Shown here: one piece after another, positions 3,646 through 64,000 of the stretch
Layout: each line of letters starts with the position of its first letter
How positions within the stretch are numbered: position 1 is the first letter of the stretch
Source of the DNA: a virus
IMG/VR virus record: IMGVR_UViG_3300008116_000055
Span: 99,542-163,541 of that record
Strand: one strand, 5' to 3'
Length of the DNA stretch: 64,000 bases
Notes under the pieces: generated by a model
Databases searched by the model: none
Seen by the model: the letters and a program-made list of their open reading frames with translations, nothing else
What the model was told of the DNA's origin: nothing
Translations under genes and position numbers: made by a program

Positions 3646-3647
3646 TA

Positions 3648-5076: not shown

Positions 5077-5087
5077 TTTTATAATTT

Positions 5088-5678: not shown

Positions 5679-5684
5679 ACTGAA

Positions 5685-9651: not shown

Positions 9652-9652
9652 T

Positions 9653-10432: not shown

Positions 10433-11886
10433 CTTAATTGTTTGATATTTTTTCTAATTTCAGGTGAGTTTATGTACTGACCTAAGACTTGTTTTAATTC
10501 AACATCAACCTTTTCAAATTTTGATGCCATATCAATCATTACCACACTGTTTGTGTCAATGAATGTTTTACGTTTTTTAAGTAAAGTTTTCAACGCAAAA
10601 TCTAAGTTATAAATTGATGTTTCTAAATTAATATCAAACCAATCAATCATTTTTAAATTTGTAGATGTAGTGGCAAAAAAGTCACTAATACTACCAAAAT
10701 TGTTTGGAAAGTGTCCGTGTAAAATATTGAAAAAAGATGATTTGTTTTTAAAAATTAAATTGAACTGTTCGTTGTTTTGAACTATATCCAATCCATTTGA
10801 AAAAATTGTTCGGTCGTTTTCTAATACTGTAGGAAAGACGCACCCAAAAGTATTTTTTTCACTCTTAAATATTGAATACATACTTGAGAAAACGTCGTTC
10901 AATACGGTAACAGTATCATTACTGAAAAATAACAAATCTGTTTTTGATTCCATAAACGATTCATCCCATTTCAGTACTGATAAGTTTTTATTTAATGTAT
11001 CAAAAAAACCCTCGTAAATTTTAATATTTTCAGATTCAAATTCTCTAATATTGTCTATATTGGTATCCGTCGAGATGAGTGAAATCTGTAAACTATCAAA
11101 CACTGGTAATTTTTTTATGTTTTCAAAAAACTGAATTAAATTTTCATTATCGTTTGATGTTTGAACTATTAAATTAAATTTATCTTTAAACTGTTTTGGT
11201 TTGGTTATGTCATAATCAATTTTTGGTGTTATATTAATTGGTAGGTTCTCTTTAAATTTTTCAATGTAAAATTCCCTATTCTTTTCCCAAGAATCATTGG
11301 TCATTCCGATTGATTTGTGAGTGATTCTTATGTTGTATATAACACCGATGTTTACCTCACTTAAGTGATTGCTAGTACAGAATACCATATCATAAAAATG
11401 AAAACCCGGTACTGACTCATCAAAAGTGTGTTTTATTCTGTTTTTGTGGATTCCAATGAATAAACCATCCACTAAACAAACTTCGTGAATTGAATTTGGG
11501 ATTCCATTTGCATATCTCGATTCCCATTTTTTACCCTCATTTTCATGATTAACAATACCAACCATTTTGGTATTATCTGTCCACCACCTACCACTCTCAT
11601 GAATATTGGTTGTACCGGCAACACCGAGAATCCCGTAGTCAGATTCTTCAAAATGTTTGACTAATTTTCTACCCCACGAAGTCGTATTAAAGTAAATGTC
11701 ATCATGACAAAGTACGACAATATCATGAATCGACTCTTGAATAATTTCATTGTAAGTTTGTGAAAGACTTTTTTCACCATTGTTTACTTTTTCAATAACT
11801 TGAACTTTGGGGTGTCCACAAGTTTTTTTTAAATATTCTTGAAATTTTGGGTTGGACTCTCTTGTACTGTAACCTATTGTAATCAT
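10429..11886 (-). CDS. multidomain glycosyltransferase-like protein (first gene of the glycan operon)
   Basis: 485 aa. N-terminal MITIGYSTRESNP...VVLCHDDIYF resembles a GT2 domain. The C-terminal half is unassigned. Confidence 0.45.
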   Translation of the reverse strand: MITIGYSTRESNPKFQEYLKKTCGHPKVQVIEKVNNGEKSLSQTYNEIIQESIHDIVVLCHDDIYFNTTSWGRKLVKHFEESDYGILGVAGTTNIHESGRWWTDNTKMVGIVNHENEGKKWESRYANGIPNSIHEVCLVDGLFIGIHKNRIKHTFDESVPGFHFYDMVFCTSNHLSEVNIGVIYNIRITHKSIGMTNDSWEKNREFYIEKFKENLPINITPKIDYDITKPKQFKDKFNLIVQTSNDNENLIQFFENIKKLPVFDSLQISLISTDTNIDNIREFESENIKIYEGFFDTLNKNLSVLKWDESFMESKTDLLFFSNDTVTVLNDVFSSMYSIFKSEKNTFGCVFPTVLENDRTIFSNGLDIVQNNEQFNLIFKNKSSFFNILHGHFPNNFGSISDFFATTSTNLKMIDWFDINLETSIYNLDFALKTLLKKRKTFIDTNSVVMIDMASKFEKVDVELKQVLGQYINSPEIRKNIKQLR

Positions 11887-13336: not shown

Positions 13337-13732
13337 TTAACGGACAGGATTCATAGGTGTTCCCAAATACATATTAACTCGGTCACCTTCTTTAAATTTA
13401 TCAGTAACACCGGCGGGAAACTCAATAACATGGTCACCTATGCCGGTGTATCTTTTTGGGTTCAATTCATTTTGACCAGCGGGTTCACAATTTCTATGTA
13501 TTTTACTGATTCTATTTTTCAATACAAAAACAATATCCAAAGGTATTAAACAGTTTTTCATCCAAAAAGAATGGTGACCAACACCACCCATATTAAAAAC
13601 CATACAACCATTTAAATTATCTCTACCCATCATACCTTGACTAATTTCTTCAGGTTCGGATAGGTATTCCGCAGGGAACTTTGTATTATTAATAATCACT
13701 GACATATTTTTATAAATATTTGACTTTATCAT
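13337..13732 (-). CDS. DUF192-family protein
   Basis: 131 aa. GMMGR...FWMKNCLIPLDIVF matches the DUF192 (COG1430) signature. Convergent with the methyltransferase. Confidence 0.55.
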   Translation of the reverse strand: MIKSNIYKNMSVIINNTKFPAEYLSEPEEISQGMMGRDNLNGCMVFNMGGVGHHSFWMKNCLIPLDIVFVLKNRISKIHRNCEPAGQNELNPKRYTGIGDHVIEFPAGVTDKFKEGDRVNMYLGTPMNPVR

Positions 13733-14112: not shown

Positions 14113-14322
14113 ATGTCAAATAAAGAAAAGAAATACATCACGGATTTTTTTGTAATAAGAAAGAAATACCATTGGTTTCTTTTACCAACTCCCATATTTT
14201 ACTACCGTAAAGACACGTTTTTTGAAACCGGTGCAACCTCACCAAGCTGGGGTTTGGCTTTGAGATTCTTAATTTTTATGGTCGGTATTCAGATACAGAA
14301 AAACATATATTATAAAAAATGA
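14113..14322 (+). CDS. hypothetical small hydrophobic protein
   Basis: 69 aa ORF, 4-nt overlap with the GS gene. Confidence 0.3.
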   Translation: MSNKEKKYITDFFVIRKKYHWFLLPTPIFYYRKDTFFETGATSPSWGLALRFLIFMVGIQIQKNIYYKK

Positions 14323-15443
14323 AAACAAAAGTAGAATACGTATGGCTTGATGGGTATTCCCCTGAGCCAAATCTCAGAAGTAAAATAAAAATTGTGGACC
14401 TACCGGCACCATTTGAATTGAAACACATCCCCAATTGGGGGTTTGACGGAAGCTCAACTAAACAAGCGGAAGGTAACTTTTCAGATTGTTATCTTAAGCC
14501 AGTAAAATTATATCATACAAATAGTTCACTTGATACAGTATATGTATTATGTGAGGTTTTAGATGGTAATAATGAAATTCATCCATCAAATCATAGAGCA
14601 AAAGTAGGTGAGGAAGATGTAAATTTTTGGGTTGGATTTGAACAGGAATATTTTATTCGTTCTTCACATAATAATCCAATTCTTGGATTTGAAAGAAATG
14701 GTATCATTGACGGTCAAGGAATTTATTATTGTGGTGTAGGTGGACATATTGTTGGTCGAAATATTTCTGATGAACATTTGAACATGTGTTTAAAATATGA
14801 CATCAATGTGGAGGGAACCAATTCAGAGGTTGCATTAGGTCAATGGGAATACCAAATTTTTGCAACAGGTAAAATTGCCGCTTCTGATGATTTATGGATG
14901 AGTAGATATTTTTTACATAAAATTGCTGAGAAATATGGTCGTTCTATTGAGTTACATCCCAAACCGATGACCCACGGAGAATGGAACGGTTCAGGTTTAC
15001 ATACAAATTTCTCAAATCAAAAAATGAGAGAAGAGGGTGGTGAACAATACTTCAATGCAATTTTTAGGTCTTTTGAATCAAGAACACAAGAACATATTGA
15101 CTCTTATGGTTCTGATAACCATTTGAGATTAACAGGTCATTTTGAGACACAATCTATTGATAAATTTAGTTGGGGTGTCTCAGACAGAGGTGCATCTATC
15201 CGTGTACCAAAATCCGTTGGTGAGACATGGAAGGGTTATCTTGAAGACAGGAGACCAGCATCACACGCGGACCCATATAAAATCGTTAAAGTGATTAGTG
15301 ATAGTTTATCATTAGCCGAAGAATTAAATAATGTTCATCACATGATGAATGTTGAAATAGACACCGAAAAAATTGTAAATAAATACGGTACACTTTCAGG
15401 GGAGGAACTCTTGGAAAGTTATCGAAAAGATGAAGAAGAATAA
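14319..15443 (+). CDS. glutamine synthetase, type II (eukaryote-like)
   Basis: 374 aa. YVWLDG...LRSK N-terminal beta-grasp, NWGFDGSSTKQAEGNFSDCYL, FEQEY and GQWEYQI metal-binding blocks, HPKP...NGSGLHTNFS, NHLRLTGHFETQSIDKFSWGVSDRGASIRVP. Essentially all GSII catalytic signatures are present. Confidence 0.85.
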   Translation: MKTKVEYVWLDGYSPEPNLRSKIKIVDLPAPFELKHIPNWGFDGSSTKQAEGNFSDCYLKPVKLYHTNSSLDTVYVLCEVLDGNNEIHPSNHRAKVGEEDVNFWVGFEQEYFIRSSHNNPILGFERNGIIDGQGIYYCGVGGHIVGRNISDEHLNMCLKYDINVEGTNSEVALGQWEYQIFATGKIAASDDLWMSRYFLHKIAEKYGRSIELHPKPMTHGEWNGSGLHTNFSNQKMREEGGEQYFNAIFRSFESRTQEHIDSYGSDNHLRLTGHFETQSIDKFSWGVSDRGASIRVPKSVGETWKGYLEDRRPASHADPYKIVKVISDSLSLAEELNNVHHMMNVEIDTEKIVNKYGTLSGEELLESYRKDEEE

Positions 15444-16777: not shown

Positions 16778-17381
16778 ATTAATATATCAAAAAAAATCTG
16801 ACGAACTTATTAACAGTGTCGAAGGATGGTTTATTGTTTCTGAAGATTCATCAAAGAATTTTGAAGCATCAAAAGAAACTTTAGAAAAAATAAAAAGCGG
16901 AAAATATGATGTAAAAGACGGTGATGAAGTCGAGTATGTTTTAAAAACAAATTGTCAAGTAATGTACGATGATATTTTTCATAGTACAATTGCTGACATC
17001 ATAATAACGCAAAAAATGGTTAGTCGGGTTTTTCTGATTGATATTGATGGGACAATTTGTGACGACATTAAAAATGAAGATTCACATCTTTATCCGACAG
17101 CTAACCATTACCCAAACGCGTTGGGTATCATCAACAAATGGTACGATGAGGGAAATGTAATTACATTTTTTACCGCTCGTGAAAGTAAAGACCGTGAAGT
17201 AACCGAAACATGGTTAAAAGAAAAAGGTTTTAAATATCACGGATTGGTTATGGACAAACCAAGAATCAAAGATGACCAAGAATATGTGTGGATTGATAAT
17301 AGAAAAGTCAGAGCGATTACGTATCTTGGAACGTGGTCTGAATTAAAAGAAGTAGACGCAAAAATTCAAACATTTGAGTAA
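16767..17381 (+). CDS. HAD-superfamily phosphatase
   Basis: 204 aa. VFLIDIDGTICDD (motif I DxDGT), FFTARESK (motif II T/S), later K...D-x-D/N (WIDNRK). 1-nt overlap with the ThyA-like gene. Confidence 0.5.
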   Translation: MKGKLIYQKKSDELINSVEGWFIVSEDSSKNFEASKETLEKIKSGKYDVKDGDEVEYVLKTNCQVMYDDIFHSTIADIIITQKMVSRVFLIDIDGTICDDIKNEDSHLYPTANHYPNALGIINKWYDEGNVITFFTARESKDREVTETWLKEKGFKYHGLVMDKPRIKDDQEYVWIDNRKVRAITYLGTWSELKEVDAKIQTFE

Positions 17382-18706
17382 TGAACAAATTAGATAAACA
17401 ATACACAGACTTACTCCAAACTATTATAGATTATGGGGTAGAAAAGAAAGACCGTACAGGTACAGGAACCAAATCTATTTTTGGTTATACAATCCGTCAT
17501 AAAATGTCCGATGGGTTTCCATTACTTACAACCAAGAAAATGGCGTGGAAGACGATGGTAACCGAATTGTTATGGTTCCTTCGTGGTGATACAAACATCA
17601 AGTTCCTTGTTGATAACAATTGTCATATTTGGGATGGTGATGCGTATAAGAACTATCTAATTGAAGATGCCAAAATCTTACCTAATATGTCAAAAGAAAA
17701 AATGTTAGAGTTAGGATTTCGATTAACAAAAGAAGAATTCATCAACAAAATAAAAACCGATGATGAGTTTGCTAAGAAGTGGGGTGACCTCGGACCTGTG
17801 TATGGTAAGCAATGGAGAAGATGGGGTAGAAAGAATGTGACTAATTACGACTTAAAGGATGTAAAAGGTTCTGACCAACACAGAGTACTAAAAGCAATTG
17901 AAATCGGTGAAGATGTTACCAAGTATGGTGTCAAAATAGAATACCAAAACAATTCAATAGACCAAATCACAAACCTAATCAACGACCTTAAAACAAATCC
18001 AGACTCAAGACGATTAATGGTCAATGCTTGGAATGTTGGAGAGCTGGACCAAATGGTTCTTCCACCTTGTCATTATGGATTTCAAGTTTATACGAGAGAG
18101 TTGAGTTTAGATGAAAGGATTAATTATTATAACTCAACAAAAGACCCTTTAAATCAAAGTAGTGATTATCACGATGTTCACATGGATAGTTTAAGAGTTC
18201 CTAAACGAGCAATCTCTTTAATGTGGAATCAACGCTCAGTAGACACATTCTTAGGTCTACCATTCAATATTGCTTCTTACGGTTTGTTACTTGAGATTAT
18301 TGCTAAAGAAGTAAATATGGTACCTGATGAGTTGATTGGTAATTTAGGTGATACTCATTTGTATAGTAACCATGTTGAACAAGCAAGAGAACAAATCGGT
18401 AGAAAGTATACACATGAAGAGAGAGAAGGTATGTTAAAAGAGGCGATGGGTCCTAATGGTTATAAAAGTGCGTTGAAAGACTTAGCACCATTTGGTGGAG
18501 GTATGTCTGAATATTATGAGATATATAAAATACCACGATACACAAGAGAACCTTATAAATTACCCAAACTAAAACATATGAAGACCGATGAATTTTATAA
18601 ATCATTATCTGAAGACTCATCTTTAATAACTCATTTGGAAAATAAGGATTTTCAAATCGAAAATTATCAATCACACCCATCGATTAAAGCACCCTTAAGT
18701 AATTAA
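17381..18706 (+). CDS. thyA: thymidylate synthase ThyA homologue with four large insertions
   Basis: 441 aa. RTGTGT, LGPVYGKQWR, DQI..L...LK.NPDSRRLMVNAWN, LPPCH (catalytic Cys), LMWNQRSVDTFLGLPFNIASY, GDTHLYSNH all present. About 150 extra residues are distributed in four inserts relative to bacterial ThyA. Confidence 0.85.
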   Translation: MNKLDKQYTDLLQTIIDYGVEKKDRTGTGTKSIFGYTIRHKMSDGFPLLTTKKMAWKTMVTELLWFLRGDTNIKFLVDNNCHIWDGDAYKNYLIEDAKILPNMSKEKMLELGFRLTKEEFINKIKTDDEFAKKWGDLGPVYGKQWRRWGRKNVTNYDLKDVKGSDQHRVLKAIEIGEDVTKYGVKIEYQNNSIDQITNLINDLKTNPDSRRLMVNAWNVGELDQMVLPPCHYGFQVYTRELSLDERINYYNSTKDPLNQSSDYHDVHMDSLRVPKRAISLMWNQRSVDTFLGLPFNIASYGLLLEIIAKEVNMVPDELIGNLGDTHLYSNHVEQAREQIGRKYTHEEREGMLKEAMGPNGYKSALKDLAPFGGGMSEYYEIYKIPRYTREPYKLPKLKHMKTDEFYKSLSEDSSLITHLENKDFQIENYQSHPSIKAPLSN

Positions 18707-38072: not shown

Positions 38073-39182
38073 ATGAAAGTAAATATATCGAATGCAACCT
38101 TCTCTTCGATAGTAGGGATTGGTCAGAAAGTTAAAAGGGCGGCAAAAGAATCAGGTAATTCATATCTCGAATTAAATAGAGGTGTAAACGCTGTTACGGA
38201 AATCGATTTGACGGGAGTTATGAAACAAATTGATTTTAACTCAAAAGAGTTTCAAGTATATGCACCTAACTTGGGTATTGAAACATTTAGACATTCTATC
38301 GTTTCAGAATATTTTCCTTCATTTGCAAATTCACCTAATTTCATCAATAATATTGCAATCACACCAGGTGGTATGCCTGCGTTAGATTTGGTTATCCAAT
38401 TATTAAATGTAGAAAATATTTATTTCCCAAAATTTTATTGGGGTTCTTATTCTAAAATGGCAACAATTAGACAAAAGTCTTTTTCATTTTATGAATCATT
38501 AGAATCTTTAGAAGCATCCAATTTTAGTGAATCATCTTGTATTTTTATTTGTGACCCAAATAATCCTACAGGTGTAAAAATAGATGACAACATTCTTTTC
38601 AGAAAGATTTATGAGATATCGATGACAGGTGCGATTATAATATTTGATTCACCATACCGTAAGTTATTTTATGAAGATGATTTCTTTGATAAAGTTGCCC
38701 ATCTTGATAATGTTATTATCACCGAATCTTTTTCAAAATGGGTAGGTTTATCGGGTTTAAGAATGGGTTTCATTTTTTGTAAGGACAAGGATTTTAATTC
38801 AGAATTAAACATTCGTTTACTTTATGAATTCAATGCCGTATGTTCCCCATCTCAAATGATTATTGAGAAAGTTTTAACCACACCCGAAGGAAGAAGTTCA
38901 TTAGAACAATTTAAAAATATAACAACTAATAATATCTTTAAGAATGTAAATTACCTAAAAGAGAAAAACCTACTGGTTGAAGAAATTTACCAAGGTGGTC
39001 AACCATTAGGTATCTTCGCGGTTATAAATAAATCGGAAGATTACTTATTTCAACATAGAATCGGTGCTGTTGGTCTTGATAAGTTTGTTTATCACGATAA
39101 GGACTTATGGTCATCATATTCTAGAATCTGCGTGTCAGTTGAGCACGAATTATTTAAAAAATATTTACTAAACATAAAATAA
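38073..39182 (+). CDS. PLP-dependent aminotransferase, class I/II fold
   Basis: 369 aa. ICDPNNPTG, IIFDSPYR, SFSKWVGLSGLRMGF (PLP lysine) in canonical order. Confidence 0.7.
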   Translation: MKVNISNATFSSIVGIGQKVKRAAKESGNSYLELNRGVNAVTEIDLTGVMKQIDFNSKEFQVYAPNLGIETFRHSIVSEYFPSFANSPNFINNIAITPGGMPALDLVIQLLNVENIYFPKFYWGSYSKMATIRQKSFSFYESLESLEASNFSESSCIFICDPNNPTGVKIDDNILFRKIYEISMTGAIIIFDSPYRKLFYEDDFFDKVAHLDNVIITESFSKWVGLSGLRMGFIFCKDKDFNSELNIRLLYEFNAVCSPSQMIIEKVLTTPEGRSSLEQFKNITTNNIFKNVNYLKEKNLLVEEIYQGGQPLGIFAVINKSEDYLFQHRIGAVGLDKFVYHDKDLWSSYSRICVSVEHELFKKYLLNIK

Positions 39183-55564: not shown

Positions 55565-55686
55565 AGTATATTAAAAAGTTAATGAACCACCTTTGGTGGT
55601 TAAAAAAACAGAAGGTAGAAAGTATGGTTTACTGCGGTAGACCCACATCGGTTTAAACAATTTGAAACCATAGTTGTTACATCTAT

Positions 55687-55896
55687 ATGAAAAAATTTAT
55701 ACTGTACAGACCACTCTCGGATATGGAATCTGATGGGGTTTATTTTGACGAATCGGTTAAGAAGAAACTGGTTGAAGAGAGAGAAAAACAGGTATGTCAT
55801 TATAGTGGTTTACCCTCTGTTTGGATGTACAGTAGTGATAGGATTTTGACCCACGATACCCCTAATGTAATACAGAAAGAGTTAAAAAACCCTTGA
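55687..55896 (+). CDS. hypothetical small protein
   Basis: 69 aa, last gene of the plus block. Confidence 0.3.
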   Translation: MKKFILYRPLSDMESDGVYFDESVKKKLVEEREKQVCHYSGLPSVWMYSSDRILTHDTPNVIQKELKNP

Positions 55897-56092
55897 TTTT
55901 AACCCTGTAATCCAGACATTTTTTGTCGTAAGGAATTTTTCTCAGATATATACGAATGTATGACAAGAAATCCCGCTGGTCGTATTACAATCCATAAAAG
56001 TGGATTAAAGTGGGAAATTGTGGGACATAGTAGGGGATTGACCCTTGTTCGAAATAAGAGTTATATTTTTATATTTTCAGAAAAACAGATGT

Positions 56093-56128
56093 AAATAAAA
56101 AACCCCCAAGTGTCATACAAGGGGGTTA
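56093..56128 (-). terminator. intrinsic terminator at the convergence point (minus strand; possibly bidirectional)
   Basis: Plus-strand AAAAAA-AACCCCC-AAGTGTCATACAA-GGGGGTT. Read on the minus strand it is a GC stem followed by a T-run, immediately downstream of the stop of 56148..56966. Confidence 0.7.
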
Positions 56129-56147
56129 ATGTATATACGTATATATG

Positions 56148-56966
56148 TCATACACGTCTCGTGTCGTCAATAAAAATTCTTACGTTGTGTTTCTCCCTGA
56201 ACTTTTTTTCTAACTTATCAATAATATTATCTTGTAAGTTATAGGGGAAATCGGGACTACCTTTTTCGATACCATCTATGGTTTTAAATTTTGAATCAAT
56301 GAACGGAATTAAATCTTTTTCATTTTTTATATCTTTTTTCCCGCGTACCACAACTCTAATAACTGGGTTGTCTACGAGTTCATACTCATGGTCATCTATC
56401 TTTCCTTTTTTATATACGGTGTAATACACCGTCGCTCTCTTTATTAAAATTTTTATCCACTCATCCATTTGGTCAAAAAACTTAGGTAATACATCTTGAG
56501 GTAATACAAGGGAATATTGGCCAGACAAAATGTACTGTATTGTTGGATTATCATACCTGAGGTGATTGGTATAATTTCTGTCAAACGATTCTTCTAATAA
56601 ATCAATAATTAAAGGTCCGTTAATAAGGTGAAGTGACCTTATACTTAACTTGAACGGAAATTCACCGAACCCAATCTCTTGAATTTTTCTGCCAACCAAA
56701 ATGTAGATGTCATTAATCATCTCAGGATAAACCCTGTTAACATCAACAAATAGTTTCAATAGACATTCACTTATAAAAGGGACACCATCTATTGTTCCTT
56801 GGGTTGGGTCTTCAGCTACAACATATTTTATTGTAATGGTCCCATCGGTCAGTCCTTTAAGTGAGTCACCTATTTGTGGTAAAGCGTCGTGAAACTTTTG
56901 GACATCATCACCTTCTAAAGTTTCTGTTAGTTTAATCATCTCATTTACTTTACATATAAATACCAT
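56148..56966 (-). CDS. hypothetical protein
   Basis: 272 aa ORF. ATTTAGTTTGGC motif ends 8 nt upstream of its ATG. Confidence 0.5.
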   Translation of the reverse strand: MVFICKVNEMIKLTETLEGDDVQKFHDALPQIGDSLKGLTDGTITIKYVVAEDPTQGTIDGVPFISECLLKLFVDVNRVYPEMINDIYILVGRKIQEIGFGEFPFKLSIRSLHLINGPLIIDLLEESFDRNYTNHLRYDNPTIQYILSGQYSLVLPQDVLPKFFDQMDEWIKILIKRATVYYTVYKKGKIDDHEYELVDNPVIRVVVRGKKDIKNEKDLIPFIDSKFKTIDGIEKGSPDFPYNLQDNIIDKLEKKFREKHNVRIFIDDTRRV

Positions 56967-56972
56967 TCCCCC

Positions 56973-56984
56973 GCCAAACTAAAT
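56973..56984 (-). promoter_or_regulatory. ATTTAGTTTGGC motif copy (extended about 30-bp repeat GGGACCTGAGGAGGTCGATTTAGTTTGGCGG)
   Basis: Plus strand GCCAAACTAAAT read directly. Confidence 0.4.
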
Positions 56985-57075
56985 CGACCTCCTCAGGTCC
57001 CTGAACTAACAAGTGTTAGTTAGTTTGTGCCAAACAAAATCGGTACCGTCGGACGATTCTGAGGATTCTGATTCC

Positions 57076-57087
57076 GCCAAACTAAAT
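57076..57087 (-). promoter_or_regulatory. ATTTAGTTTGGC motif copy
   Basis: Plus strand GCCAAACTAAAT, within the ORF-free 56967-57237 region. Confidence 0.4.
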
Positions 57088-57132
57088 CGGTGGATTTATT
57101 GTTACAACATCAATTGTCTAAACAACCTTTCC

Positions 57133-57144
57133 GCCAAACTAAAT
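57133..57144 (-). promoter_or_regulatory. ATTTAGTTTGGC motif copy (extended repeat GGGACCTGAGATGGTCAATTTAGTTTGGCGG)
   Basis: Plus strand GCCAAACTAAAT. Shares about 30 bp with the 56973 copy. Confidence 0.4.
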
Positions 57145-57178
57145 TGACCATCTCAGGTCCCGTCGTCAGGATTCTCAT

Positions 57179-57214
57179 TAAAAAAAAAATCCCGTGACGT
57201 TAATCACAGGATTT
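57179..57214 (-). terminator. intrinsic terminator (minus strand)
   Basis: Minus-sense AAATCCTGTGA-TTAACG-TCACGGGATTT followed by TTTTTTTTTT, just downstream of the stop of 57238..57507. Confidence 0.7.
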
Positions 57215-57237
57215 GGTTAAGAGACTTGAGTCGTCTA

Positions 57238-57507
57238 TTACATATTACTCAAGATACTCTTACGGAACTCGAAAGCTTTCTTCTTGGAGGAGAAGTTCTG
57301 AGAGTAACGGGTTCCGTTAACGCTAGCACGTACACGGTAAGAGAAACCATCATAGTAGATGTGGTGTGAAACAGGTACGTAAGTACTTACGGTTGTTTTC
57401 ATAGCCGGAGCTGCTACTGCTTTCTTCCCACCCTTTTTGGGGGCTGGAGCTGGTTTCGCCGCTGGTTTGCTGGCGGGTTTTTTAGTTGTGGACTTCTTTG
57501 TTGCCAT
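57238..57507 (-). CDS. small basic DNA-binding-like protein (Lys/Ala/Pro-rich N-terminus)
   Basis: 89 aa. MATKKSTTKKPASKPAAKPAPAPKKGGKKAVAAPA histone-H1-like tail, then Y-x-G...Y-x-A...G-x-R-Y segment reminiscent of AP2/integrase-type DNA-binding domains. Confidence 0.45.
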   Translation of the reverse strand: MATKKSTTKKPASKPAAKPAPAPKKGGKKAVAAPAMKTTVSTYVPVSHHIYYDGFSYRVRASVNGTRYSQNFSSKKKAFEFRKSILSNM

Positions 57508-57590
57508 AATATATTGATTTTGATATATAAAATATACACAAGAAAATCCTAAAAACCAAATCCTATAAAAAAATCTTTCAAAGAACTAAT

Positions 57591-57602
57591 GCCAAACTAA
57601 AT
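57591..57602 (-). promoter_or_regulatory. ATTTAGTTTGGC motif copy containing the TAG stop of 57597..57917
   Basis: Plus strand GCCAAACTAAAT. CTA at 57597-57599 is the stop codon of the upstream gene. Confidence 0.45.
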
Positions 57603-57917
57603 CCACAGTATGATTCCCTCCTCAGGGTTATCAGGGTACCGTGACTCTTCTAAACATACACCACATGTGGATGGTAATAATTGCTGCTTACCTTTTATTC
57701 CATCTACCTGAAATTGCGATAGAGGTGCTGGTATACTGAATCCACATATGTGACACTCTAACCTATATACGTTTAACTCACCCTTCCAATATAAATCAGT
57801 CAAGTTGAATTTCTTTCCCATCACTACGTTGTCATTAACGTCGGTAATGGTGTCTTCTATTATTTCACCTGTGGTAGGGTCCGTGAAGTATACCTTGTCC
57901 CTGATGAAGAGTTTCAT
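57597..57917 (-). CDS. small Cys4 zinc-binding protein
   Basis: 106 aa. CHICG...CGVC. Confidence 0.45.
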   Translation of the reverse strand: MKLFIRDKVYFTDPTTGEIIEDTITDVNDNVVMGKKFNLTDLYWKGELNVYRLECHICGFSIPAPLSQFQVDGIKGKQQLLPSTCGVCLEESRYPDNPEEGIILWI

Positions 57918-58086
57918 TTACTCTTCCCCCTTTCTTCCAAACGTTGCAAATATTGTGAAAACATCTTGGCCGCCATTGCTAACCTTTGAGGTTTAAAACA
58001 ATATTTCTTATTAAGTCTAGCCATTGCTATCCTCATGAACTGTTCCTGAATCCGTGGTTCTACTACTATCATGACTTTAAATATTG

Positions 58087-58548
58087 CTACAGGTGAGTAT
58101 TGAATACATCAAAATCCCTAATTCCCATATTTTGTCTCTCCACTCTTGCGTTGTGCTGTAAAAACGCTTGAATACCTTCACCGTGTGGTACGGCTTGAAA
58201 TATTAGTTGCTGTTTAAATTGCTCTGAAGTAATAACTCGAACAACAGACAGTCCAAGTAATCTCATCCAAAATGGTTCGTCGACCATTACAGATTTAATC
58301 CTGAAATAGTTCACAGATTCTCGAGTCACACTGAAGACCCCTTTTCGTTCAATTACACAGTCATCATAGAATTCATACCTCCAACAATCTACTTCGAAAT
58401 ATTTGTAGATATAGATGACTACCGCCAATGCACATGCATATGGGTGTACGAAGTAAGTTGCTGGTACCATGGCCAGCCAACCAATATTCAACCACTGAGA
58501 TGGGGTGAATATGTGAATCGGTTCTTGAGGTTTCTGTGTATTGAACAT
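58087..58548 (-). CDS. membrane protein with bacterial PH (bPH_2/YdbS-like) domain
   Basis: 153 aa. N-terminal TM pair, then YEFYDDCVIERKGVFSVTRESVNYFRIKSVMVDEPFWMRLLGLSVVRV, fitting the bPH_2 pattern. Confidence 0.5.
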   Translation of the reverse strand: MFNTQKPQEPIHIFTPSQWLNIGWLAMVPATYFVHPYACALAVVIYIYKYFEVDCWRYEFYDDCVIERKGVFSVTRESVNYFRIKSVMVDEPFWMRLLGLSVVRVITSEQFKQQLIFQAVPHGEGIQAFLQHNARVERQNMGIRDFDVFNTHL

Positions 58549-58552
58549 AATA

Positions 58553-58843
58553 CTAAGTTTTTGTTACAGTTTTATTTGCGGTTGTTCCTGCTGGTGAACA
58601 TCCACATGGTGATGCTTTTCTACACATATTCATAAATGTCAGTGTATCCACTAAGTATACCTTCATGGTATCACCATATGAACCTTTATCCCATTGGGGT
58701 TTAATTACTTCTCGGGTTATGTTGCAATCGATAAAGTAAACTTTGTGTCCACTTACTAATGCCTTGTCCCCGTGTTGGATATATGTTCGATTGGTTCCAC
58801 AACCAACTAATCCAAGTGCTGATATAAATAATATTTTTTTCAT
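58553..58843 (-). CDS. small lipoprotein
   Basis: 96 aa. MKKILFISALGLVGC lipobox. Confidence 0.45.
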   Translation of the reverse strand: MKKILFISALGLVGCGTNRTYIQHGDKALVSGHKVYFIDCNITREVIKPQWDKGSYGDTMKVYLVDTLTFMNMCRKASPCGCSPAGTTANKTVTKT

Positions 58844-58867
58844 AACTCCAAATCTAAATAAAATTTA

Positions 58868-59530
58868 TTACTTCTCAATATGGATATCACGAAAAAATTC
58901 AAAATCAATTACTTCGTCTTCCTCCACCGCGAAGTCAACACACATTGCAATAATCTTTCCTCTTTTCTTTGCAACATATAATGTGTAAGAACCATCACCA
59001 AAACCAGATGAAGAAACTACTCCCTCGTCATACACACCGTATCGACTATCACCCAAGGTACGAGAACACATACTGATGTACCATTTTTCACCTTGTTCTT
59101 CCTCACGGGCCTCGGTCATTTCTTTCCAAGGTGTTACACCAAAGAATGAAATGTCACCATCTCCCAAACCGATTCGTTCTGTAATAGAGTCGTCACGGTA
59201 AGATTCTTTGGAGAAGATTCCACACTGACCTGAGTCGACACCGATGGTTGCAGGATAATCTTTCCAAACCAGTTTGTCGTCTTTATGGTCCTCGTGTATG
59301 ACAAGTATCATTGAACTTCGGATACCCCAATCACCACAGTCGTGACGCTTAACATAGGTGTCATACATACCGGGTTTAACACCACTAACAATTCCCTGAC
59401 ACCAGGTTGGGATTGTGTAACAAGGGTCGGATACTACGACCTCAGTTCCTAATTTGATTTTGTTTGTCATACACCTATTGATTTTTAATGTTCTATATTC
59501 AAAATTAATACATTTACTAGAATATTCCAA
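58868..59530 (-). CDS. hypothetical protein
   Basis: 220 aa. Likely start at the internal Met (MTNKIKLGTEVVVSDPCY...). Confidence 0.45.
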   Translation of the reverse strand: MEYSSKCINFEYRTLKINRCMTNKIKLGTEVVVSDPCYTIPTWCQGIVSGVKPGMYDTYVKRHDCGDWGIRSSMILVIHEDHKDDKLVWKDYPATIGVDSGQCGIFSKESYRDDSITERIGLGDGDISFFGVTPWKEMTEAREEEQGEKWYISMCSRTLGDSRYGVYDEGVVSSSGFGDGSYTLYVAKKRGKIIAMCVDFAVEEDEVIDFEFFRDIHIEK

Positions 59531-59561
59531 ATTTTTCTAGAATATTTTTGCCAATCTAAAT

Positions 59562-59909
59562 TCAGTACATCTCCTCCTTCAGTTGCTTTGCTTTCTCAAA
59601 GTGTTTCTTGATTTGGTTTGCAAAACTCACCAAACGAGCTTTGGTCTTTGCGTATGCGTAGAACTGACAATACTCACTGTCAAAATCGATTCCACTACAA
59701 TTGATGTTTCTCTTGACACAGTCCTCGAAGTCATAGGCAGAGTCGTAGTCGTGACCAATTGCTTCTTTTTTAGGGAAACCAGTAAGTGTCCACTGTGCTC
59801 CATCCCAATCACCTTTGTAAATTGAGAGTCCAATACCTGTTGAAATTGTTTCTGTTTTCATACCTCTACTTTTTAAATGTTGATTTGAATACTCGGATGT
59901 TTTCCTCAA
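59562..59909 (-). CDS. hypothetical protein
   Basis: 115 aa. Overlaps the next ORF by 44 nt, so the start may be internal. Confidence 0.35.
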   Translation of the reverse strand: MRKTSEYSNQHLKSRGMKTETISTGIGLSIYKGDWDGAQWTLTGFPKKEAIGHDYDSAYDFEDCVKRNINCSGIDFDSEYCQFYAYAKTKARLVSFANQIKKHFEKAKQLKEEMY

Positions 59910-60345
59910 TCTCGAGGTCCATAGCCTGAGCTAACTTCATCTTGGCTTTGGTCATGAACTCCTTGTCGCCAGACAAAATCTCCAAATCCTCCTCAGGGTG
60001 AAACTCAATCTTGTCGACAATAACACGGACATCTTTTGACTTCTTATCCTTACGGTAGAAAGGAGTCCTTGCGTAGATGTACTCACGAACTTGAGTCAAC
60101 TTGATATCACTGAGGTCCTCACGAATTCTCATTTGGATTATAATCTCCTCGAGTGATGCTAGTTTTTCGAATGTTAATTTACTCTCAGTGATTAAGTTCT
60201 TATATAAACCAGTGAGCTCTTTAAGCTCCTTAGAATATTTCTTACCATCACCGTGGTTGATGAATTGGTCATATGAACTCAGTTCACTCTTTGACCCTAC
60301 GATGTCAATGAAGACACCCTCGATTGTTTTATTTACTCGTCCCAT
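59866..60345 (-). CDS. hypothetical protein
   Basis: 159 aa. Confidence 0.45.
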   Translation of the reverse strand: MGRVNKTIEGVFIDIVGSKSELSSYDQFINHGDGKKYSKELKELTGLYKNLITESKLTFEKLASLEEIIIQMRIREDLSDIKLTQVREYIYARTPFYRKDKKSKDVRVIVDKIEFHPEEDLEILSGDKEFMTKAKMKLAQAMDLEIEENIRVFKSTFKK

Positions 60346-60350
60346 AATCT

Positions 60351-60611
60351 TTAAAAGAAGTTTAATACAGATTTTAACATGCCAAACAAAATTCGGGGTT
60401 CGGCTGTCCCGTCGGAAAATTTTACTTCAGAGTTTTCCATTTCTCTTTTCATTTGAATTGCTTCATCAACTTTAATCCGTTGCTCGATGGTTCTTGCGTG
60501 GTATTTGGATGAAACAATGACATTCTCTTGAGTTCTCAATGCGTCTACCCATTCTTGGTAGGTTAATTCTTCTTGAGGTTCTGCTGTCGATAATATTTTC
60601 AAATCTTCCAT
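60351..60611 (-). CDS. hypothetical protein
   Basis: 86 aa. Confidence 0.4.
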   Translation of the reverse strand: MEDLKILSTAEPQEELTYQEWVDALRTQENVIVSSKYHARTIEQRIKVDEAIQMKREMENSEVKFSDGTAEPRILFGMLKSVLNFF

Positions 60612-60617
60612 ATGAAT

Positions 60618-61232
60618 TTATTTTACTTTTTCCTTTAGTTCTTCTTCGTATATTCTACGGATTTCTTTTGCGTCTTCCGTATCCACATAAGGGAATTGTG
60701 CAACGAAGTCATCAACACTAGTTTCGTTATCGATTGCATATTCCATCTCATTTTGGAAAAGGGATTCCCAAAAGTATTCTTCGTCAAAACGATAGTTACC
60801 TTCGAGATAACCATAATCATCCTCAACCACTCCGTTTTGATTAATGGTTGTTTTGCCACAGAAATCACTTCCACCCTCCGAGTAGAACAACTCCACATCC
60901 ACACCATACATCTTGTGTAATACAACACCAAAGTTTATTGGTGGTGACCACGCCGTATCAGGTGACATATAGATAACATCCTTCTCAAAAGTGAAGTTGC
61001 AGTCGGCGTATGACACATCCCATTTGGTACCATACCAACTGGTGTTTGCATTATACCATCCACCTTGTTCGTATTCTTCTTTACTAATTTCAGGTTCACG
61101 ACCGATTAAGGACTCAAACACGATACACTTTTCAGGTTCGGACTTTGGAACATCATTAAGGATACGAGTGAGCAAACCAATCTGCTCTTCAGTACCTGTT
61201 ATTGTTATTGAGTTTTGACACCAGTTCGGCAT
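60618..61232 (-). CDS. hypothetical protein (MPNWCQN... family)
   Basis: 204 aa, acidic C-terminus. Confidence 0.45.
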   Translation of the reverse strand: MPNWCQNSITITGTEEQIGLLTRILNDVPKSEPEKCIVFESLIGREPEISKEEYEQGGWYNANTSWYGTKWDVSYADCNFTFEKDVIYMSPDTAWSPPINFGVVLHKMYGVDVELFYSEGGSDFCGKTTINQNGVVEDDYGYLEGNYRFDEEYFWESLFQNEMEYAIDNETSVDDFVAQFPYVDTEDAKEIRRIYEEELKEKVK

Positions 61233-61315
61233 AATCTATCTATTTTAAGCTGTTCATTAATACAAAGGTATAAAGAGGATACCATTTTACCAAACGATAT
61301 CCTCTTTTTATTTTT

Positions 61316-61861
61316 TTACCAGGATGATTGGTAGTAGAAATCTCCTTCCTTTTCCTCTAATAAGGGAGTGATTTGTTTGATGGTATCTTCTAAACCTTTT
61401 AGATACCACTCATCATATTCAGTTCCCCCGAAAAAGAAACCTGCTTGGGTTGGTAGTAGTTCTTCCGCAAGTTCGGTGTCGGTGTAGACATCGATGTCCT
61501 CATACAATTCCTTACCACCTTGCCAACCAACTTTCACCTGAACCTTCTTCGTCGGAGAATTTTTCAGGGTTGCTCTAACTTTCCCACAGGTATCCACCAA
61601 CTCTTTGAGTTTTTCGCGGTCTACATAATACTCACCACAATCGTCCTCACCGTCCTGTACATTGTTTACAAACCATGCGTGGATGTGGTTGTCCTTTCTC
61701 CAATACGCCACCTGTTCCTCGATGGATGAAATTCTGTCGGGTTGAATTTCCTTAACTACTTTCCCACCCTTCTTAACTGTCACCTTGTGAAGTTGTTCGG
61801 GTTCCATATGTGACCAATTTTTCACATAGGTTTTCTTCTTGAGATACATGTCTAATCCCAT
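61316..61861 (-). CDS. hypothetical protein
   Basis: 181 aa. Confidence 0.45.
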   Translation of the reverse strand: MGLDMYLKKKTYVKNWSHMEPEQLHKVTVKKGGKVVKEIQPDRISSIEEQVAYWRKDNHIHAWFVNNVQDGEDDCGEYYVDREKLKELVDTCGKVRATLKNSPTKKVQVKVGWQGGKELYEDIDVYTDTELAEELLPTQAGFFFGGTEYDEWYLKGLEDTIKQITPLLEEKEGDFYYQSSW

Positions 61862-61865
61862 TGTA

Positions 61866-62168
61866 TTATTGATTTAAGATGTTAAACAATTTTGTACCAA
61901 GACCAAATAACTTTTCGGCCTTATCTTCTCTTTTTCCTTCACTACACACGTAGATTGACTTATCAGGTAGAACACCCAAATCCAACATTCCAAATGTGTG
62001 TTCCCATTTACCATTGATGAATTGTTCACCTGTAAACCTTTCTTGTGCGTTGTACGCTTCGTAGGTCATTTTCAATTTGACATTATTCTCATTTTGAATA
62101 ATTCTCATCTCATATGACTTATCTCTCAAGTGAGATGATACCGAGTGGATTACTTTTTCTTTTTTCAT
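61866..62168 (-). CDS. hypothetical protein
   Basis: Track 61866..62186 from TTG. The first ATG (62168) sits exactly at the end of the 65-bp promoter repeat (MKKEKVIHSVSS...). Confidence 0.45.
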   Translation of the reverse strand: MKKEKVIHSVSSHLRDKSYEMRIIQNENNVKLKMTYEAYNAQERFTGEQFINGKWEHTFGMLDLGVLPDKSIYVCSEGKREDKAEKLFGLGTKLFNILNQ

Positions 62169-62170
62169 AA

Positions 62171-62234
62171 TACAAAGATATAACAATTTTTCTTTTATAC
62201 CAAATTTATTTTCAACTTTGTTGCCAAACTAAAT
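62171..62234 (-). repeat. 65-bp conserved promoter cassette, copy 1 (ATTTAGTTTGGCAACAAAGTTGAAAATAAATTTGGTATAAAAGAAAAATTGTTATATCTTTGTA in minus sense)
   Basis: Near-identical to 62559-62622 and 63315-63379. Contains TTTG-N20-TATCTTTG. The motif TAG is the stop codon of 62229..62540. Confidence 0.7.
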
Positions 62235-62540
62235 GTCCTCGACGGTAAAGTCATCCGACTCAAGGATGTCTATGATGTGTGCGAGTTCATATATGTCCAA
62301 TTCAACTAACGAGAGTTCTATACTATCACCAAAACTTTCCGACATCACAGTACCATCAGGTAATATTCCATACGCCGCGTATTGAACTCTACCATCATCT
62401 TCGTACATACCTTCGGTAACCCAAACTCCAAACACATTTCTAAATGTGATTTGTTGGTTCTCACCAATAATGGTCGAACATTTGTTTTTAATTTTTTTGA
62501 TTATTTCCTCTTGTAGGTCTTGAATTTTTTTCTTGTACAT
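62229..62540 (-). CDS. hypothetical protein
   Basis: 103 aa. Confidence 0.45.
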   Translation of the reverse strand: MYKKKIQDLQEEIIKKIKNKCSTIIGENQQITFRNVFGVWVTEGMYEDDGRVQYAAYGILPDGTVMSESFGDSIELSLVELDIYELAHIIDILESDDFTVEDI

Positions 62541-62558
62541 AATAAAATGTTTTAGTAA

Positions 62559-62622
62559 TACAAAGATATAACAATTTTTCTTTTATACCAAATTTATTTT
62601 CAACTTTGTTGCCAACCTAAAT
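62559..62622 (-). repeat. 65-bp conserved promoter cassette, copy 2 (motif variant GGTTGGC)
   Basis: Read directly. One substitution in the 12-nt motif (plus GCCAACCTAAAT). Confidence 0.7.
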
Positions 62623-62661
62623 CAATGTCCATCCCATAATATATGTGTACGAGGTTTTTAA

Positions 62662-62688
62662 TAAAAAACCCCACATTTCTGTGGGGTT
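62662..62688 (-). terminator. intrinsic terminator (minus strand)
   Basis: Minus-sense AACCCCAC-AGAAAT-GTGGGGTTTTTT, downstream of the stop of 62704..63294. Confidence 0.7.
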
Positions 62689-62703
62689 CTCTCCTTAAAC
62701 CAA

Positions 62704-63294
62704 TCAATCATAAGTAATCCTCGCGTATTTTACTGTGACCCAGTTGTCCTTTACAACAATCTTACCCATGTCCTCACCATCCTCGCCTTTCCAATAAACC
62801 TCACCATTTAATTTCACACCCCACTTCTCAAAGAAATGATTGATGATATATTTCAACCACTCAACGTAGTTGTAAAACTTCTCACCACCATCCCATATTA
62901 GATGAGTTCCATTTTCATCCGTAGTCCACTGACACCATAAACCAGGTTGACATTTACCCTCTCGTGTTCTCAAATCATTTTGTGTCCACCTTTCGTTGTA
63001 GTTAGTTGTTAGAAAATCTAGTTGACCTGGAGGTGTATTGTAATCGACAATACTATCATCCTTGTCTTGACCTGCGAACCCATTACCACCAACAAAGTAT
63101 TCACCATCGTTTCCGTAGGTTTCTTCTTTTGGTAGAAAAGGGTTTCCGTGTTCACCCTTAAATAACTCATAGAGTTTCTCAACATTTCGTTTCATTCTAC
63201 GAGTGTTGTTGAACTTGGTGATGTAATTCTTTTCATCACTAGTAAGTGGACGACTGAATTCAAATCCACCTTCGAAATCGGTTGTGTATCCCAT
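62704..63294 (-). CDS. hypothetical protein
   Basis: 196 aa (MGYTTDFEGGFEF...). Confidence 0.45.
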   Translation of the reverse strand: MGYTTDFEGGFEFSRPLTSDEKNYITKFNNTRRMKRNVEKLYELFKGEHGNPFLPKEETYGNDGEYFVGGNGFAGQDKDDSIVDYNTPPGQLDFLTTNYNERWTQNDLRTREGKCQPGLWCQWTTDENGTHLIWDGGEKFYNYVEWLKYIINHFFEKWGVKLNGEVYWKGEDGEDMGKIVVKDNWVTVKYARITYD

Positions 63295-63314
63295 ACTTTT
63301 TTAATTTAATTGTA

Positions 63315-63379
63315 TTACAAAGATATAACAATTTTTCTTTTATACCAAATTTTTTTTCAACTTTGTCGCCAAACTAAAT
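63315..63379 (-). repeat. 65-bp conserved promoter cassette, copy 3
   Basis: Read directly. The motif TAG (63374-63376) is the stop codon of 63374..63850. Confidence 0.7.
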
Positions 63380-63850
63380 CCCCCCTGTGAATATGGGGTT
63401 TGGTCTGAACTCCAATTTGTACTTTGGGTTGTAACTACCACCCGAACAATTGCTACATGAATAAGACCTACTTCTTAAACGATGGGCTTTGGATACCTTA
63501 CCACAACCAACACATGTTGCAATATATTTTGCTTCGGGTGTTTCAACTACTTTACTACTATAACAACGATGTCCATCACAACCTATTTCAATCGCTTTCG
63601 ACCTCCATACATGGTTATGTTTTTGACCAGGACAAAGTGCGTGTGCAATCTCATGTAGAATAGTATTCTTTACATGACTTTCATCATTAAGTAATGTCAA
63701 TACTTTGGATAGTGTAATTTGTTTAGGTCTGTATTTACAACACCCAAACCTACTTTTTGCATTGTCATACGCAAATGTCCACCCCTTAACATCTAACTTG
63801 TGTTTGTGAATTAACTTCTCTGCTAACCGTTGTGCTTTAATTAAGTCCAT
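63374..63850 (-). CDS. SprT-like zinc metalloprotease domain protein
   Basis: 158 aa. ILHEIAHAL (HExxH) then GQKHNHVWRSKA (H-x-W), plus C-terminal CxxC...CxxC zinc ribbon. Confidence 0.6.
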   Translation of the reverse strand: MDLIKAQRLAEKLIHKHKLDVKGWTFAYDNAKSRFGCCKYRPKQITLSKVLTLLNDESHVKNTILHEIAHALCPGQKHNHVWRSKAIEIGCDGHRCYSSKVVETPEAKYIATCVGCGKVSKAHRLRSRSYSCSNCSGGSYNPKYKLEFRPNPIFTGGI

Positions 63851-63865
63851 GTTGTTTTATTTTAG

Positions 63866-63877
63866 GCCAAACTAAAT
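63866..63877 (-). promoter_or_regulatory. ATTTAGTTTGGC motif copy containing the TAG stop of the partial gene at the window end
   Basis: Plus strand GCCAAACTAAAT, 14 nt upstream of the ATG of 63374..63850. Confidence 0.45.
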
Positions 63878-64000
63878 TTCACCTTCACCTGTCGTGATGT
63901 ACACTCCGTAATCGATGGTGTGCAATTGTGGTACTCCATCATTGTCCATGATGTGACCATCGAATAACCAGTTGGGTTGAACTCGTGGATTGTATCGAAC
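63872..64000 (-). CDS. hypothetical protein (partial; N-terminus beyond window end)
   Basis: Minus-strand frame open from the window end to the TAG embedded in the motif at 63872-63874. Confidence 0.35.
   Translation of the reverse strand, partial: VRYNPRVQPNWLFDGHIMDNDGVPQLHTIDYGVYITTGEGEI

Follow-up and report, generated by a model that had tools for sequence, protein, structure and literature searches.

The 64,000-nucleotide (nt) stretch of virus DNA analysed here (the window), positions 99,542 to 163,541 of the IMG/VR record IMGVR_UViG_3300008116_000055, carries three near-identical copies of a 64-nt promoter-like cassette, each placed ahead of a small gene on the minus strand. The copies were located by a repeat search of the window, together with a minus-strand reading of positions 61500-64000. 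Coordinates are those of the window unless a relative is named. In the direction of transcription, with protein lengths in amino acids (aa), the features are as follows.

63316-63379, minus strand: cassette 3, with its 12-mer at 63368-63379, an A-rich tract at 63350-63367, the -33 TTTG at 63346-63349 and the -7 box TATCTTTG at 63318-63325
62704-63294, minus strand: gene for a 196-aa protein that matches phrog_38666, a PHROG of unknown function, with cassette 3 as its predicted promoter
62656-62699, minus strand: intrinsic terminator hairpin of the 196-aa gene (AACCCCACAGAAATGTGGGGTTTTTTAT), with a 13-bp stem, 33 nt upstream of cassette 2
62559-62622, minus strand: cassette 2, with the 12-mer variant ATTTAGGTTGGC at 62611-62622, the -33 box at 62589-62592 and the -7 box at 62561-62568
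62229-62540, minus strand: 103-aa ORFan between cassettes 2 and 1
62171-62234, minus strand: cassette 1, with its 12-mer at 62223-62234, the -33 box at 62201-62204 and the -7 box at 62173-62180
61866-62168, minus strand: 100-aa ORFan behind cassette 1, in leaderless configuration

An earlier note on this DNA had described three near-identical promoter repeats at this place. The repeats are real, and the 64-nt copies are 95-98% identical in pairwise comparison. Compared with the 64-mer quoted in that note, copy 1 is exact, copy 2 has one substitution and copy 3 has two. A 34-nt core, TTTGGTATAAAAGAAAAATTGTTATATCTTTGTA, is invariant across the three cassettes and had no match in 100 shuffles. 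Every cassette has TTTG, then exactly 20 nt, and then TATCTTTG. The earlier account missed that the first 12 nt of the cassette, ATTTAGTTTGGC, are an independent and widely distributed motif that also occurs alone, and that the cassettes belong to a larger promoter family. The 12-mers of cassettes 1 and 3 overlap the ATT-TAG ends of the 103-aa gene and of a SprT-like gene, respectively. There is no stem-loop within the 64-nt cassette, which folds no better than shuffled sequence (z = +0.48), and a search against known RNA families gave a single sub-threshold match (24 bits, compared to a gathering score of 114).

The cassettes lie in a cluster of small accessory genes (56.1-64 kb), and all genes from 56148 to the end of the window are on the minus strand. 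The cluster products include SprT-like, Api92-like/DUF1281, DUF4241-like and bPH proteins and several small proteins without matches; in relatives, an extension of the cluster adds DUF932, GP88 and ParB/GmrSD-like genes. The genes behind the cassettes have no Pfam match and at best belong to a PHROG of unknown function. The three proteins are mutually unrelated, as are all 16 cluster proteins, which rules out gene duplication as the source of the repeats. No virion genes were found among the annotated open reading frames (ORFs) of the window. The earlier suggestion of late or structural products does not agree with small, unrelated genes in such company. Most likely, the cassette cluster is a highly variable accessory region that would be expressed early. 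The cluster (56001-64000) also stands out by its base composition, with 36-39% GC compared to 28-35% elsewhere in the window (about 32% overall), which fits a mosaic or separately acquired origin.

The promoters of the Bacteroidota primary sigma factor have the consensus TTTG at -33 and TANNTTTG at -7, the latter refined in F. johnsoniae to TAHHTTTG (G excluded from both middle positions), and transcription starts 4-5 nt past the final G of the -7 element (PMC6847099). In all three cassettes, the -7 box TATCTTTG conforms to both TAnnTTTG and TAHHTTTG, and the AT-rich spacer behind the -33 TTTG(G) has 20 nt, within the range of about 19-21 nt. The AT-rich upstream sequence matches as well (PMC6847099). 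The cassettes differ from the bacterial promoters in belonging to a phage, in an unusually well-defined -33 element (TTTGG), and in the extra upstream 12-mer. The pattern TTTG-N17-21-TANNTTTG has 15 matches in the window (4.6 expected), 12 of which lie between genes, 1-32 nt ahead of an ATG and on the same strand as the gene that follows. E. coli-type sigma-70 promoters occur at chance level (25, with 26.7 expected). Start codons are preceded by A-rich sequence, without a Shine-Dalgarno motif and without GGAGG. The window's helicase is closest to helicases of Bacteroides, Chryseobacterium, Flavobacterium and Salinibacter phages (31-36% identity). Each cassette is confirmed as a match to the Bacteroidota sigma-A consensus, as the earlier note had proposed, and by its sequence would act as a promoter of this type. 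An attempt to find the host through the cassette core in bacterial genomes gave a single chance match, in coding sequence.

The ATG follows the last G of the -7 box at a distance of 4 nt in cassette 1, 20 nt in cassette 2 (ATG of the 103-aa gene at 62540) and 23 nt in cassette 3 (ATG of the 196-aa gene at 63294). These distances fit the claim of leaderless or short-leadered transcripts, given the published 4-5 nt between the -7 element and the start site (PMC6847099). In cassette 1, only TATT separates the -7 box from the ATG at 62168; transcription is predicted to start at the A of this ATG, and the mRNA would be leaderless. In F. johnsoniae, leaderless transcripts are a minority, and 87% of the leaders are longer than 10 nt (PMC6847099). 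The relatives considered here, L001 to L027, are metagenomic phage contigs, and the 4-nt geometry is retained in two of them (L008 and L004) where the cassette abuts two other genes.

The cassettes have more distant siblings in the same cluster, which share their architecture.

59500-59561, minus strand: sibling module, ATTTAGATTGGC, 18 A-rich nt, TTTG, 20 nt and TAATTTTG, ahead of the DUF4241-like gene; 67% identical to the cassettes
61261-61318, minus strand: sibling promoter TTTG-N20-TACCTTTG without the 12-mer, with the -33 box inside a very stable hairpin (z = -5.6); 50-52% identical to the cassettes
57557-57560 (TTTG) and 57529-57536 (TATATTTT), minus strand: near-consensus promoter of a gene for an 89-aa protein; 45-47% identical to the cassettes

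As these siblings are only 45-67% identical to the cassettes, compared to 95-98% among the three cassettes, the near-identity of the latter exceeds what promoter function needs, and points to recent spread or homogenisation rather than functional demand. At 61261-61318, terminator and promoter are combined, as in modules of the promoter-early stem-loop (PeSL) type. Beyond the position in L001 that corresponds to the window end, nearly every intergenic region has the same order: stop codon, repeated GC-rich hairpin with a T-run, 12-mer, A-rich tract, TTTGG, 19-20 nt, TAnnTTTG and ATG. The distant relative L019 has the same layout, with promoters that are 72-88% alike. The terminator hairpin at 62656-62699 (CCCCACAGAAATGTGGGG and a T-run) recurs near-identically after several genes (in L001 at about 285-320, 1375-1410 and 7100-7135); as it follows different genes, terminators, like promoters, appear to be reused modules. 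L001 also has an extra gene for a membrane-like protein of about 74 aa (13360-13583), just upstream of the counterpart of the 59500 module and absent from the window, which is another gene-content difference beside a promoter module.

The cassette core was found in only a few related metagenomic contigs; four of nine metagenome matches to a 22-mer of the core were chance matches in AT-rich sequence. There was no nucleotide match to any deposited phage, and searches of IMG/VR with the 103-aa and 100-aa proteins gave no new contexts. Within this small set, the gene content of the cassette region differs, and the endpoints of the differences lie in cassettes in three independent cases. Across the cassette stretch, L001 and L002 share 90-98% identity with the window, and they lack a 388-bp unit composed of a cassette and the 103-aa gene. 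They have one cassette in place of two. This single cassette is a hybrid: its 5' variant is that of cassette 2, its 3' flank that of cassette 1. The 103-aa gene is missing from the whole 72.9-kb L001 contig. In L003, L004 and L013, homology to the window runs from the -7 box of cassette 3 to the end of cassette 2. The 196-aa gene of the L004/L013 phage is about 96% identical to that of the window at the nucleotide level, and the rest of the L003/L004/L013 backbone shares only homologues of 33-46% aa identity; the cassette there directly precedes a Toprim primase-like gene, in the replication module. In L008 and L012, the 103-aa gene sits behind a GP88-type gene, and its promoter is another variant, in which only the -7 box and the leader are shared; cassette 1 is then followed by a different ORF, of 62 aa.

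An alignment of the cassettes has four kinds of upstream flank and five different downstream genes. Gains, losses and swaps at the cassettes in the three groups agree with the claim that the repeats are substrates for recombination. Window cassette 3 is 97% identical to cassette 1, and 94% (L001) and 89% (L007) identical to its positional counterparts. The positional counterpart is thus not always the closest match, a hint that copies have exchanged sequence, although few bases are involved.

The 12-mer at the head of the cassette is much more widespread than the cassette itself. Its consensus ATTTWGKTTGGC, with at most one mismatch, has 17 matches in the window (2.2 expected), 15 of them in the range 56520-63877 of the minus (sense) strand; the plus-strand promoters of the window have no such motif. 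The sites outside the modules described so far, and the 89-aa gene that lies among them, are as follows.

63866-63877, minus strand: isolated 12-mer ATTTAGTTTGGC, overlapping the stop codon of a gene truncated by the window end; the ATG of the SprT-like gene comes 15 nt later, and no sigma-A promoter follows the 12-mer
60381-60392, minus strand: 12-mer ATTTTGTTTGGC inside the 3' end of an 86-aa gene, identical at the equivalent position of L001
57591-57602, minus strand: 12-mer that overlaps the stop codon of a 106-aa gene, 30 nt upstream of the 89-aa gene promoter; L001 has two 12-mers at the counterpart
57238-57507, minus strand: 89-aa gene; the product has a disordered Lys/Ala/Pro-rich tail and a 45-aa beta-sheet-and-helix domain
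56973-57144, minus strand: tandem array of four 12-mers starting at 57133, 57076, 57029 and 56973 (spacing 57, 47 and 56 nt), with the terminator of the 89-aa gene on one side and a 272-aa gene on the other

About half of the 12-mers are linked to a promoter at a fixed distance, and end 18 nt before the -33 TTTG, or 8-9 or 18-19 nt before it in relatives. The two distances are about one helical turn apart, which would keep the site on one face of the helix, at about -65 to -54. Four genes end with ATT-TAG inside a 12-mer. The tandem array has three copies in L001 and equivalents in L019, L021 and L023. The array region is 72-79% identical between the window and L001, with every 12-mer fully conserved, and the two indels in it are one repeat unit each and bounded by 12-mers. 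Relatives also carry inverted pairs of 12-mers with spacers of 4-50 nt. In the cluster of every lineage, the top GC-containing k-mer is the 12-mer motif of that lineage, and the asymmetric, multi-copy, transcription-oriented pattern is also found in L019, L021 and L023. Most likely, the 12-mer is a regulatory site separate from the sigma-A promoter, which on the sequence pattern would be bound by a small phage protein.

Some further observations concern individual 12-mers. Inverted pairs (ATTTTGTTTGGC ... GCCAACCAAAAT) occur in L001 at 355-395, 1445-1512, 3936-3993, 7170-7197 and 8124-8184, flanked by the GC-rich direct repeats GCTGCTGGTTGCGCTG and GCTGCGCGC; as the interior of about 37 nt is found in both orientations at different sites, the element has the appearance of a small palindromic insertion or of an invertible unit. 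At 59968-59979, inside a 159-aa gene, there is a 12-mer-like site that encodes I-L-S/F-G, with counterparts at L019 8228, L021 5749 and L023 5580. It follows the lineage variant (TTTGGC in L019 and L021, TCTGGA in L023) and may be a real intragenic site. As RNA, 57060-57160 (minus strand) folds well (-33.4 kcal/mol, z = -4.5 compared to shuffled sequence), because the 12-mer can pair with another copy through G-U pairs. The other half of the array has an unremarkable fold (z = -1.3), and 57060-57160 has no Rfam match.

The best candidate for the protein that recognises the 12-mer is probably the 89-aa protein. The members of its family (at least 120 sequence clusters) share a conserved core of about 45 aa, and their basic tail is variable, with a length of 0 to about 60 residues. 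In nine lineages, the family gene is last or second-to-last in a syntenic cluster, and the top GC-containing k-mer is found at or around it. Copies of the 12-mer bracket the gene in all lineages, and where positions were checked there is a site about 90 nt upstream. The motif also co-varies with the protein. Proteins with (S/A)HH(I/V)Y are paired with GTTTGGC in four of four lineages (window, L019, L021 and L026), and those with NN, KN, DN or SN with TCTGGA, CTTTGGCAGG, ACCGGCTC, CTGGGCA or ACTGGC in five of five; the 5' half of the site and its flank are unchanged. These pairings are consistent with the co-evolution of protein and site. The shared phylogeny of the nine lineages confounds the co-variation, however.

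The structural model of the protein has a disordered tail and a confidently predicted sheet-plus-helix domain (pLDDT 84-92). In a fold comparison the top matches were of the AP2/integrase-arm type (AtERF1 2gcc, TEM1 7et4, HPI Int 3jtz and Tn916 Int 1bb8), which have the same three-stranded antiparallel sheet on one helix that is predicted here. Such domains read asymmetric sites as monomers, and integrase arm sites occur as direct and inverted repeats. However, the scores were weak, a Foldseek search of the model against the PDB gave no significant match, and the 89-aa protein has no detectable sequence similarity to these domains and no Pfam match. It also differs from them in standing alone, with a histone-tail-like N-terminus and without an attached recombinase or nuclease. 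Residues 1-42 (KKPASKPAAKPAPAPKKGGKKAV) resemble the N-terminal tails of histone H2B, and the only PDB sequence matches were to these low-complexity tails.

The reading that we favour, and consider likely as a whole, is that of portable promoter cassettes at which recombination takes place, with the 12-mer as a regulatory site. The 64-nt cassette would be a complete promoter for the host RNA polymerase with its primary sigma factor, in the Bacteroidota form, made of an A-rich upstream tract, the -33 TTTGG, a 20-nt spacer, the -7 box TATCTTTG and a leader of 0 to about 19 nt. It would serve small accessory genes in a variable and probably early region of a large, AT-rich phage. As the same 64 nt are found between unrelated genes, homologous recombination between copies would delete, insert or swap genes, and a transferred gene would come with a working promoter and sometimes with a terminator. 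Such a mechanism has been proposed for PeSLs in T4-type phages. The likeness of the three copies would be due to the recent spread or homogenisation mentioned above. A small phage protein bound to the 12-mer would tie all site-bearing promoters to one control, either activating them or shutting them off.

A wider version of this reading is speculative, and we doubt that it holds in full. Widespread large Bacteroidota phages may run their variable early region on interchangeable modules of operator and promoter. A stand-alone AP2/integrase-arm-like family not described before (the at least 120 clusters without Pfam match) would read the asymmetric 12-mer about 60 nt upstream of mobile, host-type promoters and in arrays around its own gene, and genes brought in by recombination would at once come under the temporal control of the phage. 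The co-evolution of protein and site would give lineage-specific regulatory identities similar to the immunity groups of mycobacteriophages, in phages without a sign of lysogeny.

Among the alternatives for the 12-mer, the best is that the sites are roadblock operators similar to the stoperators of Cluster A mycobacteriophages such as L5 and Bxb1, on which a phage repressor would halt initiation and read-through across the early cluster. This would be one particular version of the regulatory-site reading, in which the control is negative. We regard it as possible, on less than even terms. The traits of the 12-mers are those listed for Cluster A phages (PMC6550527): stoperators are asymmetric, about 12-14 bp long and present in many copies that point in the direction of transcription; some lie in promoters and most elsewhere, often at gene ends, and from one related phage to another their consensus drifts together with the binding protein (PMC6550527, PMC9283540). 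The 12-mers are likewise often on stop codons, only sometimes promoter-associated, and co-vary with their candidate binder. In contrast to the stoperators, which are distributed over the whole genomes of temperate phages and are bound by a two-domain helix-turn-helix (HTH) immunity repressor, the 12-mers of the window are limited to one cluster, relatives carry them in inverted pairs as well as in tandem arrays, and the candidate binder is AP2/arm-type-like with a basic tail. An integrase and an HTH repressor are lacking, as are other signs of a temperate phage. Moreover, the fixed position at about -60 and the one-turn phasing fit a contact with RNA polymerase, possibly for activation, at least equally well.

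It appears unlikely that the 12-mer serves, alone or as part of a larger element, as a promoter for a phage-encoded RNA polymerase or an alternative sigma factor, which would make the cassettes two tandem promoters. The motif is strand-specific and differs between lineages, like the promoters of phage polymerases, and it is found 15 and 28 nt before the SprT-like and the 272-aa gene, both of which have no sigma-A promoter of their own. Yet no phage RNA polymerase or sigma gene is among the roughly 60 annotated ORFs, an annotation that is not exhaustive, and tandem arrays of three to four copies, inverted pairs and intragenic copies would be odd for promoters. The distance of the 12-mer to start codons varies widely, and promoter-linked copies are fixed relative to the -33 element and not to the gene. 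A sigma-54 reading (TGGCAA-N5-TTGA) fails as well: TTG at this spacing occurs only in the cassettes, the GC at -12 is missing, and the other 12-mer copies do not fit. Nor can the 12-mer be the -7 or -33 box of a second sigma-A promoter, as there is no partner element at the required spacing.

That the cassettes or 12-mers are dedicated sites for site-specific recombination, like integron attC or integrase arm sites, is very improbable. The candidate binder has the predicted fold of integrase arm-binding domains, the 12-mers of relatives occur as inverted pairs with variable spacers and after gene ends, and small indels are bounded by them. However, no recombinase catalytic domain was found near the cluster or among the annotated ORFs, slippage between direct repeats accounts for the small indels, and the breakpoints are scattered in the cassette (-7 box, -33 region, anywhere in the 64 nt), as homologous exchange predicts.

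Equally hard to credit is an assembly artefact, either a wrongly expanded repeat or a chimaera of strains joined through the 64 nt: the source is probably a metagenome assembly with closely related strains, and the full junction of cassette 2 with the 103-aa gene is found in the window only, but the cassettes differ at 1-3 positions and are thus not a collapsed or expanded identical repeat, 64 nt is shorter than typical reads, and L008 shares the leader and -7 box of the 103-aa gene. Independent assemblies from several samples contain all the other junctions, namely SprT-like gene to cassette to 196-aa gene in L001, L002 and L007, 196-aa gene to terminator to cassette in L001, L004 and L013, 103-aa gene to cassette in L008 and L012, and cassette to 100-aa gene in L001 and L002.

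The earlier note had called the repeated use of a promoter cassette unusual. This is overstated, because repeated cassettes that mediate gene shuffling have already been described in T4-type phages, as PeSLs (PMC2839356, PMC4122927). Both are modules of about 65-100 bp with a consensus early promoter for the host sigma factor and an AT-rich upstream tract, often start at the upstream stop codon, and are found before ORFans in variable regions. In both cases, homology between sequences that are otherwise unrelated ends at cassettes, and an ORFan between two cassettes corresponds to a single cassette in a close relative, so that the topology in Fig. 3 of the PeSL study (PMC2839356) matches that of the 103-aa gene. 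The differences are the Bacteroidota -33/-7 promoter in place of a sigma-70 promoter, the lack of a Shine-Dalgarno sequence, and the conserved 12-mer, which PeSLs do not have. The 64-nt cassette also lacks a stem-loop of its own, and separate, repeated terminator hairpins are found 30-150 nt upstream; the two are fused only at 61261-61318. In PeSLs, a stable stem-loop, which acts as terminator or attenuator, is part of the motif, and exchange between two flanking cassettes sets mini-circles free. No T4-like genes are among the annotated ORFs of the window. As the motif has no stem-loop and nothing marks the phage as T4-like, we do not file the cassettes as PeSLs, although they are functionally PeSL-like.

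The intergenic repeats of halovirus HF2 (58 and 29 bp) are a looser parallel. They are conserved, act as promoters and keep their positions among relatives (PMC8707807), but belong to an archaeal virus with archaeal promoters, and neither gene shuffling nor an operator motif has been reported for them. The crAss-like phage phi14:2 was considered for its early promoters and rejected, because its paper reports no common early-gene motif. Compared with these systems, the new part would be the conserved, operator-like 12-mer with its candidate AP2-like partner.

Outside the cassette cluster, the window has genes for a helicase, a long thymidylate-synthase homologue, endolysin-like proteins, a polymerase exonuclease subunit, a deoxyribonucleotidase, glycosyltransferases, an epimerase, a glutamine-synthetase-like protein and an aminotransferase. 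An unbroken run of about 11 ORFs of 196-485 aa each (835-11886, minus strand), with a UDP-GlcNAc 2-epimerase (7122-8114) and a family-2 glycosyltransferase (10429-11886), looks like a cluster for sugar or polysaccharide modification. The glutamine-synthetase-like protein (14319-15443), the 441-aa thymidylate-synthase homologue (17381-18706) and the class I/II aminotransferase (38073-39182) could belong to a pathway of nucleotide or DNA-base hypermodification. The Pfam-type match of the thymidylate-synthase homologue is split into two stretches, possibly by an insertion.

Two gene clusters converge on a non-coding region at 55565-56147, with counterparts in L012 (5050-5758), L024 (6211-7016) and L027 (6208-7067). 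It contains three of the eight copies of GTATGACA in the window (3.0 expected), and a block, GGGACAATCCCCCAC...CCACTTTTCCCC, that is conserved in distant relatives. In relatives, the region is up to 800 nt long, with hairpins and the palindrome TGACCGGCTCGAGCCGGTCA. The L012 counterpart has TTATCCACA, which we take to match a DnaA box. The convergence region could be a replication origin or a packaging region.

If the favoured reading of the cassettes is correct, cassette shuffling, which is documented in T4-type phages of Proteobacteria and cyanobacteria, extends to phages of Bacteroidota, with a different promoter code. This would suggest portable promoters as a general route by which large phages take up accessory genes, probably including those for anti-defence, with their expression intact. 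The cassette may also be of practical value, as a compact, probably strong and portable Bacteroidota promoter that is found ahead of at least five different downstream genes and may allow leaderless expression, in a phylum for which genetic tools are scarce. Finally, the 12-mer and its candidate AP2-like binder offer a testable entry to the control of early genes in phages that have been little studied.

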